Made by a program: the position numbers and the translations under genes | In this document: positions 6,611-29,856 of the stretch, one piece after another | How positions within the stretch are numbered: the first letter of the stretch is position 1 | Layout: each line of letters starts with the position of its first letter | Origin: a virus | Virus record (IMG/VR): IMGVR_UViG_3300029177_000001 | Span: 26,630 to 90,629 of that record | Length of the DNA stretch: 64,000 nt | Reading direction: 5' to 3' (one strand) | The notes under the pieces: generated by a model | The model's database searches: none | The model's input: only the letters and a program-made list of their open reading frames with translations | Told to the model about the DNA's origin: nothing

Positions 6611-6624
6611 CGATTTATAAAAGT

Positions 6625-6695
6625 TGTGGATTAGTGTAACTGGTAGCACGATGCAGCGTGGCACATAAGTAAAGGTTCGATTCCTTTATCTACAA
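6625..6695 (+). tRNA. tRNA-like element (acceptor, D-arm and T-arm fold; anticodon arm non-canonical) - possible pseudo-tRNA or tRNA-derived site
   Basis: 7-bp acceptor pairing tgtggat/atctaca (one G-U), D-arm gtgt-aactggta-gcac, T-arm aaagg-TTCGATT-ccttt; no canonical 5-bp anticodon stem found (only cacg/cgtg with 6-nt loop containing GCA). Confidence 0.3.
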
Positions 6696-6942
6696 TTCAT
6701 ATGCAGAACAATTTCCTATACATGTTTCATGACTCCAATAAAATAAGATACATAAAGTTCTGCATATGATTTTTCATTGGTGTTTATAATCAAATATCAC
6801 CTAAAGTAAATCAAATATTTAGAAACTGTAAACGTTGATTCAACAAACTATTTCATTTGTCGCTATTTGAAAATGTTTGTGAGCTGCATGTGATATAAGA
6901 TTGTAAATACCGATGTGATTAATATTAAAAGAGGTAAGTCAA

Positions 6943-12959: not shown

Positions 12960-13778
12960 ATGGATAACAGCAATTTAGCAAAAAGAATGAAACAATATGA
13001 AAGTGTTTCAAAATCAACATTGATAAGACGTATGCCAGTGATCATCAGGCTTGACGGTAGAAGTTTTCATACATTTACAAAAGGGTTTAAAAGACCATTC
13101 GATGATGTATTAGTAAAAACAATGCAAGAGACAATGAAATACCTTTGTGAAAATATTCAAGGATGTGTATTAGGTTATACGCAGTCTGATGAAATTACAC
13201 TTGTGTTAGTAGATTATAAGAACTTAGATTCTCAACCTTGGTTTGATGATGAAGTGCAGAAGATATGTAGTATTGCAGCAAGTATGGCAACTATGGCTTT
13301 TAATAAAAATTTTGAACTTTTTTCTTTAACGATGCGATTAAAAGACTCTGTAGAAAGTAATAAACTTGGTGCAGTATATAAACAAGCAATGAATAAAGGT
13401 GCAATGTTTGATGCAAGATGTTTCAATATTCCAAAAGAAGAAGTAACTAATAATATTTACTGGAGACAACTTGATGCAACGAGAAATTCTATTCAAATGG
13501 TAGGACAAGCTAATTTTTCACATAAAGAATTACAGAATAAATCGTGCAATCAAATTCAAGACATGTTATTTACACAAAAAGGAATTAACTGGAATGATAT
13601 TTCTACATATTTAAAAAGAGGAAGTTGCTGCATTAGAGAAAATTATATTTTTGAAAATTCAAACCCAAATGGTGAGACGTGTGTAGAACGAAGTCGTTGG
13701 ATAATCGACAAAGAAATCCCTATTTTTAAGGGTGAGAATAGAGAATATATTAATAGATTGGTATATGTAGGAGAATAA
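12960..13778 (+). CDS. Thg1-like protein (tRNA-His guanylyltransferase family 3'-5' nucleotidyltransferase)
   Basis: N-terminal KRMKQYE...IIRLDGRSFHTFTKGF...GYTQSDEITLVL closely matches the Thg1 family signature (RIDGRxFHxF ... SDE). Confidence 0.7.
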   Translation: MDNSNLAKRMKQYESVSKSTLIRRMPVIIRLDGRSFHTFTKGFKRPFDDVLVKTMQETMKYLCENIQGCVLGYTQSDEITLVLVDYKNLDSQPWFDDEVQKICSIAASMATMAFNKNFELFSLTMRLKDSVESNKLGAVYKQAMNKGAMFDARCFNIPKEEVTNNIYWRQLDATRNSIQMVGQANFSHKELQNKSCNQIQDMLFTQKGINWNDISTYLKRGSCCIRENYIFENSNPNGETCVERSRWIIDKEIPIFKGENREYINRLVYVGE

Positions 13779-26564: not shown

Positions 26565-27125
26565 ATGCCAATAGTAAGAAGTGTAGATGGTGTACATATT
26601 GAATATACAATACCATCTAATATTAAGAATTTGATTACAGATGATTTTTTGAATGAATTTTTATATCAACTTATTCGAATTACTGGAATATCACCGTATG
26701 ACTTCGCAGATGAAGGAATAGAATATCTGTCAGGAACCTGTGGTTGGGATGCTGCATTTGGAAAGGCTTGTATTAACACGAAAAATAAGAAATTATTTGA
26801 CTATAGAAATTCATTGGAATGGTATGATTCAGACATTTTTGATTCAGAAATAATCTGTGTTCTAATTGATAGAGAATTCATCTTAGGATATAAGACCGAT
26901 ATTATCAAGAAAGAGCTTGATGTTGAGTATGAAGATGTGGATGTGTGTGATAAATGTGGAAAGCTAATGAGAAGAGATCTACTTATTAAAAACGGAGAAG
27001 AATATATATGTCCACATTGTAAAGATGTAGATAATGGTGATACATATGGGAATGGCACATCTGATTATTATAGAGAAATATGCATAGAAGTAGATGAATA
27101 TTATAGGAGAACCAAAGATGAGTAA
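26565..27125 (+). CDS. hypothetical protein with C-terminal zinc ribbon
   Basis: CDKCGK...CPHCKD. Confidence 0.45.
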   Translation: MPIVRSVDGVHIEYTIPSNIKNLITDDFLNEFLYQLIRITGISPYDFADEGIEYLSGTCGWDAAFGKACINTKNKKLFDYRNSLEWYDSDIFDSEIICVLIDREFILGYKTDIIKKELDVEYEDVDVCDKCGKLMRRDLLIKNGEEYICPHCKDVDNGDTYGNGTSDYYREICIEVDEYYRRTKDE

Positions 27126-28068: not shown

Positions 28069-28239
28069 ATGAAGATTTGTACCGGAGCATGTAAAAATTG
28101 TAGCGAAAAACCAGATCCAGAGTGTGGAGAGATTTGCAGAGAGATGGCTGAATTGCAGCTTGATTTATTAAATGAGATTCTGCTTACAGAACTCACAGAA
28201 AAGCAGGCGGATTTAGTAAATAAATGGTGTCATTTATAA
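28069..28239 (+). CDS. small Cys-rich protein (56 aa)
   Basis: RBS GGAGTGATTG; CTGACKNCSEKPDPECGEIC. Confidence 0.35.
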   Translation: MKICTGACKNCSEKPDPECGEICREMAELQLDLLNEILLTELTEKQADLVNKWCHL

Positions 28240-28262
28240 AATCGGAAAGGACGACTGATTAT

Positions 28263-28505
28263 ATGAAAATTGTATCGAATAAGAAAATTATGACAGATGT
28301 AATGAATATTAAATCAGGACATGTATTTTGCTTCAGAGAAACTTACTATATGAAACTTGCAGATATCGGAGAAAATTGTGCAGTAAATTTATTAGATGGA
28401 CTTGTTTACAGTAATTCATTTTTTAAGTCGTATGTTTATGAAGTTTATGCAGAACTACATGTAAAAGATAATCCTAAAGATAATAATGTAATCGTGCAAA
28501 AATAA
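28263..28505 (+). CDS. hypothetical protein
   Basis: ATG 28263 preferred over 28224 (better upstream purine tract). Confidence 0.4.
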   Translation: MKIVSNKKIMTDVMNIKSGHVFCFRETYYMKLADIGENCAVNLLDGLVYSNSFFKSYVYEVYAELHVKDNPKDNNVIVQK

Positions 28506-28571
28506 TTTGAAAGAGAACTTTCATTAGGGAGAATAAAAGGTATATCCCTCACAATCTTAGAGGTCTGGTGT

Positions 28572-28655
28572 TTATAAATTTGAAATGAGTTGCAAAACTG
28601 CACTCGCCATGACTAACAGAGTTAGTGAATCAACAAGTTTTGTCAATTTCTTCAT
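28572..28655 (-). CDS. small hydrophobic peptide (27 aa), type I toxin-like; only convincing minus-strand gene in window
   Basis: minus-strand ATG preceded by AAAGGAGGT 7 nt upstream; peptide MKKLTKLVDSLTLLVMASAVLQLISNL; SD can pair with upstream CCTCC (cctccatttagaaaggagg hairpin); lies in a 355-bp otherwise non-coding gap. Confidence 0.4.
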   Translation of the reverse strand: MKKLTKLVDSLTLLVMASAVLQLISNL

Positions 28656-28861
28656 GGTATCAAACCTCCTTTCTAAATGGAGGCAAAAACACCTTATTAC
28701 CCGGAGGGCGTCCGTGACCTCTTTGATTGTGTTCTCCAACAACTATCTTTTGGATAGTTATTCCACCCAAAAGCATTATATCACACAATTATAAAAAATA
28801 AAAGTGAATGATAAATGTTCTGATCAAATGAAAAAGCAGAAAGGTATATGGATAGAATTTT

Positions 28862-29626
28862 ATGAGTGAATATATGAAACAAGGATTTGAGAAAAGATTC
28901 AAAAATTGTGACATTGTTTACTGGTGTCATAGTGATGGCAATGGGAGATATTCTGTAAAAAATGGAATGGTTGATGAACAATTTTTAGATGCAGTAGTAA
29001 TTGATTATTTAGCACCAAGAGAAAGAAGATTAGTAAATGGAATTCCGATTGACGAATTTACAAGTCAAATTAAATACAAGAAATTACCAAAAGGGTGGAC
29101 ATATAATACAGAGCTGTTTAAGATTACATATTCTGATTTAACAGAAGAAGAAGTAAATTATCGGATTGATGTTAAGAAACCAGAAACAATCAAGCAAGCA
29201 TATGATCTTGGATATTTGGTAAAGGATTGTACAATTTTCCATGGTGTTATTGAAGCAGATATTACAAAAGAAGGATATAGAATTGTAAAGAAATATCCTA
29301 TGTGGCAGCATCATATTGATCATGTTTCAATTCGTCCTGATAAAGTCTATTTTACATATGAAGAAGCAAAATCTGAAGTGGATGATAATGTGAAAGAGTT
29401 TGAAAGACAGCTTTCATTAACAGATTACGAGTGGTCAGTAGAACATATTTGTAAGAATCTGGATATTTTTAAAGCAATTCATGACTTATCAGAAAGAGAT
29501 ATTGATGCGTATAGAGAATTTATTCTAGGTATGGATAATGTAGAGAATATTGAGACTAGAATTTACCAAGGACAGATCCAGTGGAAGTACGAAGATAAGA
29601 ATAGATGGAATTATATTGAATTGTAA
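28862..29626 (+). CDS. hypothetical protein
   Basis: 254-aa ORF. Confidence 0.5.
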   Translation: MSEYMKQGFEKRFKNCDIVYWCHSDGNGRYSVKNGMVDEQFLDAVVIDYLAPRERRLVNGIPIDEFTSQIKYKKLPKGWTYNTELFKITYSDLTEEEVNYRIDVKKPETIKQAYDLGYLVKDCTIFHGVIEADITKEGYRIVKKYPMWQHHIDHVSIRPDKVYFTYEEAKSEVDDNVKEFERQLSLTDYEWSVEHICKNLDIFKAIHDLSERDIDAYREFILGMDNVENIETRIYQGQIQWKYEDKNRWNYIEL

Positions 29627-29640
29627 GGGAGAATAAATGA

Positions 29641-29856
29641 ATGTGTGGAATATATAGATATGATAAATGTTTGAGATGTGGACGTGGAAATATTTTATAT
29701 ATTTCTGAGCAAGAACATGATTATGAGTGGAAGTGTAAAAATTGTAATCATGTAAATAGAAAATTAAATAAATGGGTGCAACCTCCTAATGTAAAGAGAA
29801 GAGTTCCGTTAGGCTGGATTCCATTAGAGGAGTTGAAAAATTATGAAAAAAGTTGA
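29641..29856 (+). CDS. small zinc-ribbon protein
   Basis: CLRCGRG...CKNCNH. Confidence 0.4.
   Translation: MCGIYRYDKCLRCGRGNILYISEQEHDYEWKCKNCNHVNRKLNKWVQPPNVKRRVPLGWIPLEELKNYEKS

Follow-up and report, generated by a model that had tools for sequence, protein, structure and literature searches.

A minus-strand micropeptide module with a covarying RNA structure, possibly toxin-like, in a large gut phage

The minus-strand unit and its locus

The 64,000-nucleotide stretch of DNA analyzed here (the window; positions 26,630 to 90,629 of the IMG/VR virus record IMGVR_UViG_3300029177_000001) is a one-strand gene array. Counted as open reading frames (ORFs) only, 73 ORFs of at least 100 amino acids (17,725 amino acids) lie on the plus strand, and the minus strand holds 13 short ones. 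Between two plus-strand genes there is a gap at 28506-28861; the upstream gene stops at 28505, and the downstream gene has its earliest possible start at 28862 and the start that is kept in relatives at 28874. A first-pass annotation of this gap had described a lone minus-strand ORF with a Shine-Dalgarno (SD) sequence, an upstream CCTCC able to pair with that SD, and a G+C-rich segment, and had proposed a type I toxin-antitoxin (TA) or small-membrane-protein locus. All of these parts are present (Table 1), with the G+C-rich stretch at 28700-28719. On both strands of the window, strong SD-plus-start sites number 44 on the plus strand and one on the minus strand, which is ATG 28655, and the minus strand of 20 related loci lacks such sites altogether. 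The minus-strand mini-gene is real and not a chance reading frame. Gene callers missed its peptide in every contig examined.

The product of this ORF has a basic N-terminus (MKKLTK) and ends in LISNL. It is transmembrane (TM)-like and not amphipathic, with a best 19-residue Kyte-Doolittle window of 1.86 and a hydrophobic moment of 0.07. Given these scores and the single strong SD and start of the minus strand, the description of the gap as a lone, autonomous unit encoding a TM-like peptide was borne out. The sole match from a search of 1.84 billion proteins, P0135, is a helical repeat in an 868-amino-acid protein and was dismissed as a chance match between helices.

The candidate promoter of the unit is an extended −10 box (Table 1); a second TATAAT lies at 28793-28788 on the same strand, and the window promoter has no good −35 sequence. 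Since about one TGnTATAAT per window is expected by chance (mean 1.4), the promoter argument rests on the position of the box, from which transcription would start at about 28768. The minus-strand RNA (276 nucleotides [nt]) folds with −84 kcal/mol (z = −5.2) and is about 8 kcal/mol more stable than the plus strand because of G.U pairs. In its minimum free energy (MFE) structure, the leader is joined to the 3′ untranslated region (UTR) by long-distance helices, and the SD is paired within a local hairpin, which an outer GGUGU/AUACC helix can lengthen up to the AUG. The proposed sequestration of the SD by the upstream CCUCC was supported, and a covariation-backed 5′-3′ fold-back, as in type I toxin messenger RNAs (mRNAs), can be added to it. 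Beside helix A, two purine-rich strands face each other, GGAGA on the 28732-28737 side and GGGAAUA on the 28542-28549 side, with equivalents in the related loci described below; between them a G.A-rich internal loop may form, which might resemble a K-turn or bind a protein.

Table 1. Features of the cassette and of the predicted minus-strand RNA, in window coordinates
Feature	Position	Strand	Remarks
Lineage-specific segment (cassette)	28544..28865		About 320 bp; in place of the plus-strand phrog_20593 gene of relatives, between the same two flanking genes
Extended −10 promoter (putative), TGTGATATAAT	28775..28785	minus	TATAAT 28780-28775; sole TGnTATAAT of the 64-kb window on both strands (28785-28775), 130 nt upstream of ATG 28655
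Conserved 5′ element	28732..28768	minus	GGGUGGAA, hairpin UAACUAU[CCAAAAG]AUAGUUG (stems 28760-28754 and 28746-28740), then UUGGAGAA; covariance model R1, 57.5 bits, E=3e-13
Helix A, leader arm CACAAUC	28725..28731	minus	Pairs with 28556-28550 (inverted repeat I1); in MFE structure
Helix A, 3′-UTR arm GAUUGUG	28550..28556	minus	Directly upstream of 3′ motif
Helix B, leader arm AGAGGUC	28716..28722	minus	Pairs with 28565-28559; in MFE structure
Helix B, 3′-UTR arm GACCUCU	28559..28565	minus	In MFE structure
G+C-rich leader hairpin CGGA-CGCCC-UCCG	28702..28714	minus	The GC-rich segment of the first-pass annotation; holds a second CCUCC
Third long-distance helix, leader arm GGUGUUU	28687..28693	minus	Pairs with AAACACC 28573-28567, overlapping the stop codon; inverted repeat I12; in MFE structure
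Anti-SD/SD hairpin	28665..28683	minus	CCUCC 28683-28679, 9-nt loop, GGAGG (SD) 28669-28665
ORF and stop codon, MKKLTKLVDSLTLLVMASAVLQLISNL	28572..28655	minus	ATG 28655, 9 nt after the SD; 27 codons; stop 28574-28572; only strong minus-strand SD and start; TM-like; resembles the L065 and L051 peptides
3′ motif AGGGAUAU (family consensus GGGAAUAUUAU)	28542..28549	minus	Module 3′ edge; cassette boundary inside the motif
Weak terminator-like hairpin GAAAGUUCUCUUUC, then AAAUUAUUUUU	28497..28522	minus	Also in relatives without the cassette

Homology to relatives ends at 28539-28543 and returns at 28866-28869. In IMG/VR relatives whose downstream protein is 85-95% identical, the slot between these points holds a plus-strand phrog_20593 gene of 97-179 amino acids, the function of which is not known and the SD and start of which correspond to window positions 28529-28543. 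Contigs with an identical upstream protein have either the cassette or the phrog_20593 gene in the slot, which makes this a polymorphic locus among very close phages. Among the loci compared (designated by L numbers), L003, L007, L008, L031, and L038 carry the gene in two forms, of 97 and 179 amino acids, and it is broken by in-frame stop codons in the first four; with stops in several lineages, the slot holds a dispensable, decaying gene. The cassette itself is identical in eight of nine contigs sharing the downstream protein, the ninth having one difference, at 28509, which is not part of the cassette. A lineage with a 97%-identical downstream protein lacks just one nucleotide of it, in a U-run (28689), and the cassette is unchanged in more than 30 contigs with varied flanks. 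Samples that carry this phage include ERR525722 and SRR22389023.

The surroundings of the cassette show further variation. The small plus-strand gene immediately upstream (28224-28505) is an allelic hot spot, at which L017 and L026 differ at dozens of sites and by several indels, and the sequence of these two loci on both sides of the gene is 98-100% identical to the window. A 10-bp direct repeat, AAAGGTATAT, occurs at 28536-28545, across the left junction, and at 28840-28849, about 20 bp inside the right end. A mobile element with this repeat as its target-site duplication was considered and rejected, since the right copy of the repeat falls within the lineage-specific segment, terminal inverted repeats are lacking, and a look for an empty site gave none. 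The weak terminator-like hairpin in Table 1 is ancestral phage sequence outside the cassette and is a possible 3′ end of the transcript.

A module family with a covarying RNA structure

Exact-DNA and 8-mer peptide patterns from the window (the latter from a 56-amino-acid read-through) found no other cassette in IMG/VR, GTDB genomes, JGI metagenomes, INPHARED, or PLSDB. The idea of an orphan cassette was dropped after a looser pattern (GGAGG, 6-10 nt, MKKLTKL) found locus L043, which encodes a 28-amino-acid peptide, MKKFTKLLENLSIFLLTLSLVYAIMHMF, and has the first 29 nt of its leader nearly as in the window RNA; the 5′ RNA motif that the two share then found the family. Scans of IMG/VR and metagenomes with this motif gave the further members: L051 (peptide MRKYIKLLEVIFRLLLILAVAYAIVHMF), L065 (MKNLIKFVEALTDFILVLAVAECLMHFAAI), L062 (MEIIAVLSLILQVVSFVYSVVSKR), and twelve loci of the MKCKIK type (e.g., MKCKIKVNAGFIIAVMALIIVIKLCA), several of them on contigs of 159-178 kb. 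Three more motif matches were taken as chance, being without hairpin, promoter, and ORF, and the 5′ element was not found in cultured phages or PLSDB plasmids. The window peptide is similar to the peptides of L065 (p=1.5e-4) and L051 (p=0.004), two loci that only the RNA motif had retrieved, and to that of L043 (p<5e-5), which had been found by the peptide pattern. Similarity to the L062 peptide is marginal (p=0.03), and the MKCKIK peptides are not similar (p=0.47); the same leader type carries at least two, perhaps three, unrelated peptides. The first-pass annotation had proposed conservation of the peptide in related phages as a check of its candidate, and the outcome is divided: the closest relatives, in which this locus varies, lack the peptide, but the whole module with a related peptide is kept in other phages.

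The members share one layout. A TATAAT-like box, mostly with TG and often with a TTTACA −35, lies 6-9 nt before the conserved RNA start, and the RNA begins with RGGUGGAAUA, followed by the hairpin UANNUAU[YCAAAAG]AUANNUG and a GGAGA or GGGAA motif. The leader arm right after this motif pairs with the 7-8 nt right before the 3′-UTR motif, and another segment of the leader pairs at the stop codon or immediately 3′ of it, which in the other members places a helix, using bases just past the stop codon, in the position of helix B. An upstream anti-SD pairs with the strong SD, and a hydrophobic ORF of 24-30 codons follows. All members but L063 keep the strong SD, the ATG, and this hydrophobic ORF of near-constant length. 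The window copy has every one of these family features, including a 3′ motif of the GGGAAUAU type, and its score with covariance model R1 is given in Table 1. Read by eye, an ACGGnCGCC...CGGGU stretch similar to the G+C-rich hairpin of the window is also present in L043 and the MKCKIK type. The element runs antisense to its neighbors in most loci, and it is conserved above them (89-92% versus 67-76%).

The 5′ hairpin is supported by covariation at the two stem positions that had been left free in the search pattern. Over eight distinct sequences, pair 11-27 occurs as CG (three), GC (three), AU (one), and UA (one), and pair 12-26 as UA (five) and CG (two) with one mismatch; none of 500 shuffles reaches the covariation score, and slid registers collapse. 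A terminator-like hairpin at 28773-28747 was rejected, as it shows no covariation and has a pair broken in three sequences, and the overlapping 28760-28740 hairpin is supported instead. For helix A, five sequence types are available (CACAAUC/GAUUGUG, CUAAACA/UGUUUAG, GCCAGAU/AUCUGGU, GCCAGAU/GUCUGGU, and ACCAUAC/GUAUGGU), in which 35 of 35 cells pair and six of seven positions covary, while slid registers give 9-15 of 35. The anchors of helix A, two conserved motifs, were picked by eye, and a position-free shuffle test that accepts a 7-mer complement anywhere in the leader was not significant per sequence (p=0.15-0.45); the weight of helix A therefore rests on its fixed position and its covariation.

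Folding of the members one by one points the same way. Independent MFE folds contain the complete helix A in seven of eight members and the 5′ hairpin in eight of nine, with z from −2.1 to −6.4. The SD is mostly paired in eight of nine members (3-5 of 5 nt; in L062, 2 of 5), each time by an anti-SD sequence of the member's own, and RNAalifold recovers the same four elements from six MKCKIK-type sequences. On the opposite strand, the G.U pairs in both helices, including the invariant U.G 9-29, would turn into A.C mismatches; the structure is therefore one of the minus-strand RNA.

Coding of the peptide is supported by the six distinct MKCKIK ORFs, which have 8, 2, and 12 variable sites at codon positions 1, 2, and 3, a constant length, and conservative replacements among I, V, L, and M. 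This pattern indicates selection on the protein, and with it the unit, its family, the covarying RNA structure, and the coding of a peptide are demonstrated at the level of sequence comparison.

The window peptide and five family peptides have no Pfam, NCBIfam, PADLOC, or PHROG family match at E up to 10. Rfam 15 gave the window no match at gathering score except a transfer RNA (tRNA) at 6625-6695, and only noise at E<=10 in 28400-28950 and in two family members; no description of the module family was found in limited literature searches. By these comparisons, the module family is absent from the RNA and protein libraries searched, and it has an RNA architecture supported by covariation. The tRNA call itself (plus strand, 46.9 bits) lies in one of the few plus-strand gaps, 6611-6942, and ARAGORN finds no tRNA in the window.

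Several single members are of interest in their own right. The 3′ motif, GGUGG(G)AAUAU, is where homology to relatives breaks off in two independent copies, L055 (at about +250 of the element) and the window (28544). As the window copy ends there and the similarity of L055 to its sister loci stops there too, we take the motif to be the 3′ edge of the module; it resembles the 5′ end of the RNA, GGGUGGAAUA, and might be prone to recombination or serve as a shared binding site. L063 (PPYF01102789.1) has the promoter and the 5′ element with no clear SD-led hydrophobic ORF and adjoins a homologue (63% amino acid identity) of the window gene 12960-13778; this copy may have decayed or work as RNA only, in a relative of the window phage. 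In two unrelated members, a neighboring ORF encodes a GmrSD_N (DUF262) domain: a 325-amino-acid ORF adjoining the element in L053 and a 592-amino-acid ORF about 740 nt downstream in L065, the latter also with a Schlafen AlbA_2 domain. The module may thus be located in defense or counter-defense islands. The terminator hairpin of the MKCKIK type (AGAGAGTAGAG...CTACTCTCTATTTTATT; about 4440-4480 in L053) shares 90% identity across 40 nt with an intergenic hairpin of Fusobacterium phages, found in Fnu1 (NC_055035.1) at 79366-79405 and also in FNU2 and FNU3. Finally, the leaders of L050, L052, and L053 contain, from +41 to +82, a 13-codon upstream ORF, MSITIWSLHRALA, with GGAGAG 5 nt before its AUG, which falls in the leader arm of helix A; this ORF is absent from the window and from the other subfamilies.

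Likeness to type I toxins and rival explanations

Taken as a whole, our best explanation, which we hold tentatively and with slightly less than even confidence, is that 28544-28865 is a horizontally acquired, self-contained expression module of a family found on contigs of uncultured gut phages and that it acts as a translationally locked, type I-toxin-like micropeptide module. A host RNA polymerase of the sigma-A type would start at about 28768 at the extended −10 box and produce a minus-strand mRNA of about 260 nt, antisense to the unidirectional array. This mRNA would begin with the conserved, single-stranded RGGUGGAA and the conserved hairpin; its leader would pair with the 3′ UTR through three stacked long-distance helices around the ORF, and the local CCUCC hairpin would bury the SD. 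The full-length RNA would be stable and translationally locked until 3′ trimming, refolding, or a trans-acting factor opens the lock, whereupon a 27-residue single-helix peptide would be made that may act on the host membrane. The strong promoter, stable mRNA, buried SD, fold-back, and tiny hydrophobic product together correspond to the build of a type I toxin mRNA such as that of aapA1 or hok. The start and end of the transcript, the translational lock and how it is released, toxicity toward the membrane, and the kind of antagonist are inferences.

Two properties expected of type I toxins are found in the window: a small hydrophobic membrane-type peptide (under ~60 amino acids) with its own ribosome site, and a sequestered SD together with a 5′-3′ long-distance interaction. 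Most type I toxin mRNAs sequester the SD, some of them by 5′-3′ pairing (PMC5416894). The aapA1/IsoA1 system of Helicobacter pylori (Arnion et al. 2017, PMC5416894) likewise has a strong promoter, an mRNA of about 250 nt, a hydrophobic peptide of about 30 amino acids, and an SD that is buried in the full-length RNA. That RNA is inert through pairing of its 5′ UTR with its 3′ end, and once its last 30 nt are removed it adopts another fold, in which the SD is accessible, so that the published model for aapA1 is activation by 3′ trimming (PMC5416894). However, IsoA1 is a dedicated antisense small RNA with its own promoter opposite the aapA1 5′ UTR, and no such promoter was found in the window. 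Moreover, the two systems have no sequence similarity, the module here sits in a Firmicutes-type phage rather than a proteobacterial chromosome, and the SD lock of the window RNA is a local hairpin in addition to the fold-back.

Type I TA modules also stabilize clostridial prophages (PMC7699646). Those of Clostridioides difficile prophages (CD0977.1-RCd11; Peltier et al. 2020, PMC7699646) are, like the window peptide, small unannotated ORFs in clostridial phage genomes; they have AGGAGG 7-8 nt before the ATG and contribute to prophage maintenance. By their descriptions they are set apart from the window peptide, since they are 34-47 amino acids long, with a hydrophobic N-terminus, a lysine-rich C-terminal tail, and mapped convergent antisense RNAs (PMC7699646), whereas the window peptide has 27 amino acids, a basic N-terminus, no tail, and no antisense promoter that could be found. 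ShoB of the ShoB/OhsC system of E. coli (26 amino acids) has a basic N-terminus and a hydrophobic C-terminus and shares AVLQLI with the window peptide at almost the same position; homology was rejected (shuffle p=0.14-0.15, unrelated RNA context), and the shared AVLQLI is a coincidence. hok/Sok of plasmid R1 and its homologues is a maintenance module of mobile elements. It differs in that Hok has about 50 amino acids and is translated through the overlapping mok frame and in that Sok is a cis-antisense RNA; Pfam HOK_GEF does not match the window peptide. Judged by its large genes, which include those for a DnaE-type polymerase, a RecD/Dda-like helicase, NrdD, an NAD ligase, and a CCA-adding enzyme, the window covers the part of a large phage genome that serves replication, and by DNA polymerase the nearest cultured relatives are two large clostridial phages, Clostridium phage c-st (52%) and C. 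difficile phiCD211 (45%). We take c-st and phiCD211-like phages to be episomal prophages, and with such a lifestyle maintenance modules would be relevant.

Several observations weigh against the toxin-like reading. The first-pass description of the peptide as Fst/TxpA/Ldr-like was not upheld: no profile matched, and the basic N-terminus is not followed by the charged C-terminal tail that is usual in type I toxins (PMC7699646). The layout of Fst/Ldr, TxpA/BsrG, and the C. difficile toxins, a hydrophobic N-terminal helix with a positive tail, is present only in L062 (MEIIAV...SKR), and neither profiles at E up to 10 nor peptide comparison relate the window peptide to Fst, Ldr, TxpA, Hok, or ShoB. 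The window yielded no RNA antitoxin that has a promoter of its own and could pair with the toxin mRNA. Within the cassette, the plus strand has no −10-like hexamer with at least five of six matches, and a promoter-like plus-strand site just outside, at 28507-28534, has lost its −35 in L026-type carriers. Most members of the family have a strong terminator, and the window copy has none of its own. Because divergence in the region is patchy, the near-identity of the cassette among carriers is uninformative on selection, and selection drawn from it was rejected, a neighboring 337-nt stretch being equally invariant. Lastly, the module is dispensable, as the closest relatives are without the cassette. 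Membership in type I TA is accordingly unproven, the searches of the window having turned up no antitoxin. What stands of the initial TA or small-membrane-protein proposal is the architecture of a toxin half and the TM-like peptide, but not an antitoxin RNA.

The first-pass annotation had taken the overlapping plus-strand ORF (28585-28794; 69 amino acids) to be without a ribosome-binding site and possibly an antisense RNA region. The lack of an SD was confirmed, but a dedicated antisense RNA gene was not, given the lack of a −10-like hexamer; as a protein gene the ORF was rejected, having no family match beyond a weak PHROG match (E=0.017). A plus-strand GGAGG (28703-28707) followed after 6 nt by GTG opens a 26-codon frame in phase with it (28714-28794, MTSLIVFSNNYLLDSYSTQKHYITQL), which was rejected as an alternative gene because it is not hydrophobic. 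Nothing convincing was found when the 64-kb window was searched for a complement or second copy of the 5′ element, and an R1 match at 29643-29677 (20 bits) lies within coding sequence and was set aside. In some members, the strand opposite the 3′ motif reads TGaTATAAT and then ATTCCCACC, which could be an antisense promoter there; the sequence is weak or absent in others, and only GTATAT remains of it in the window, at the junction. As the element is antisense to its neighbors in most loci, read-through from phage genes would supply a perfectly complementary RNA, and the counter-acting antisense RNA would most likely be such plus-strand read-through or another partner.

The absence of an antisense promoter is also what would be expected if the peptide were a non-toxic small membrane protein (a "moron"), for which no antitoxin is needed; the leader would then tune its amount and timing, and the peptide would modulate a host membrane protein, superinfection exclusion, or counter-defense. 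A basic N-terminus with a hydrophobic C-terminus is the layout of many regulatory small membrane proteins. The accessory regions in which the module lies, with GmrSD_N (DUF262) neighbors in two unrelated members, the polymorphic slot in the window locus, and the unrelated peptides under the same leader would all suit this explanation, which is a serious rival even though we think it rather unlikely. However, a triple lock of fold-back, anti-SD hairpin, and strong constitutive promoter is typical of genes that must stay off and unusual for ordinary small membrane proteins (PMC5416894), and no evidence indicates a target.

Alternatively, the unit could be primarily a regulatory RNA, serving as an antisense RNA or roadblock against the plus-strand operon or acting in trans through its 5′ element, with the ORF secondary. 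Conservation is indeed much stronger in the 37 nt of the 5′ element than in the peptides, most loci have the unit antisense to its neighbors, L063 has the 5′ element with no clear SD-led ORF, and without a strong terminator the window transcript could reach the 3′ end of the upstream gene (28224-28505). Yet all the other members keep their SD, ATG, and hydrophobic ORF, the codon-position bias points to selection on the protein, and peptide similarity persists across divergent leaders, so that we regard this explanation as improbable. An inert recombination scar, in which foreign DNA captured at the loss of the phrog_20593 gene retains signals from a previous home, would fit a locus that is a hot spot of decay and replacement (stops in L003, L007, L008, and L031), the short flanking repeats (28536 and 28840), and the absence of the cassette from the closest relatives. 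It can hardly be reconciled with a captured segment that comprises precisely a single whole module, promoter through 3′ motif, and matches the L055 module edge, in which all helices, the SD, and the ORF are intact and which is unchanged in so many contigs with varied flanks; we give it almost no credence.

A more specific form of the toxin-like reading would dispense with a dedicated antitoxin gene. The near-invariant 37-nt 5′ element and the fold-back lock could be a portable RNA "chassis" that carries interchangeable membrane micropeptides, and convergent plus-strand transcription, a common factor that binds the 5′ element (and the similar 3′ motif), or both, would shut the lock or destroy the mRNA. 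This would amount to a dead-man switch, a proposal that we consider unlikely.

Meaning for gut phages

If such a switch operates, synthesis of the peptide would begin only once phage transcription through the site ceases, with functions in episome maintenance, abortive infection, or exclusion, and the system would be type I-like with the transcriptional state of the carrier element as its "antitoxin." If the broader reading of a translationally locked, toxin-like module is correct, large gut phages of the clostridial type would harbor a small, interchangeable module through which tiny membrane peptides are delivered under the control of an RNA lock, and type I-toxin-like systems would extend to uncultured gut phages. 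The covariation data give an RNA structure that can be tested, and RGGUGGAAUA followed by the hairpin would be a short RNA signature for unannotated micropeptide genes in metagenomes.

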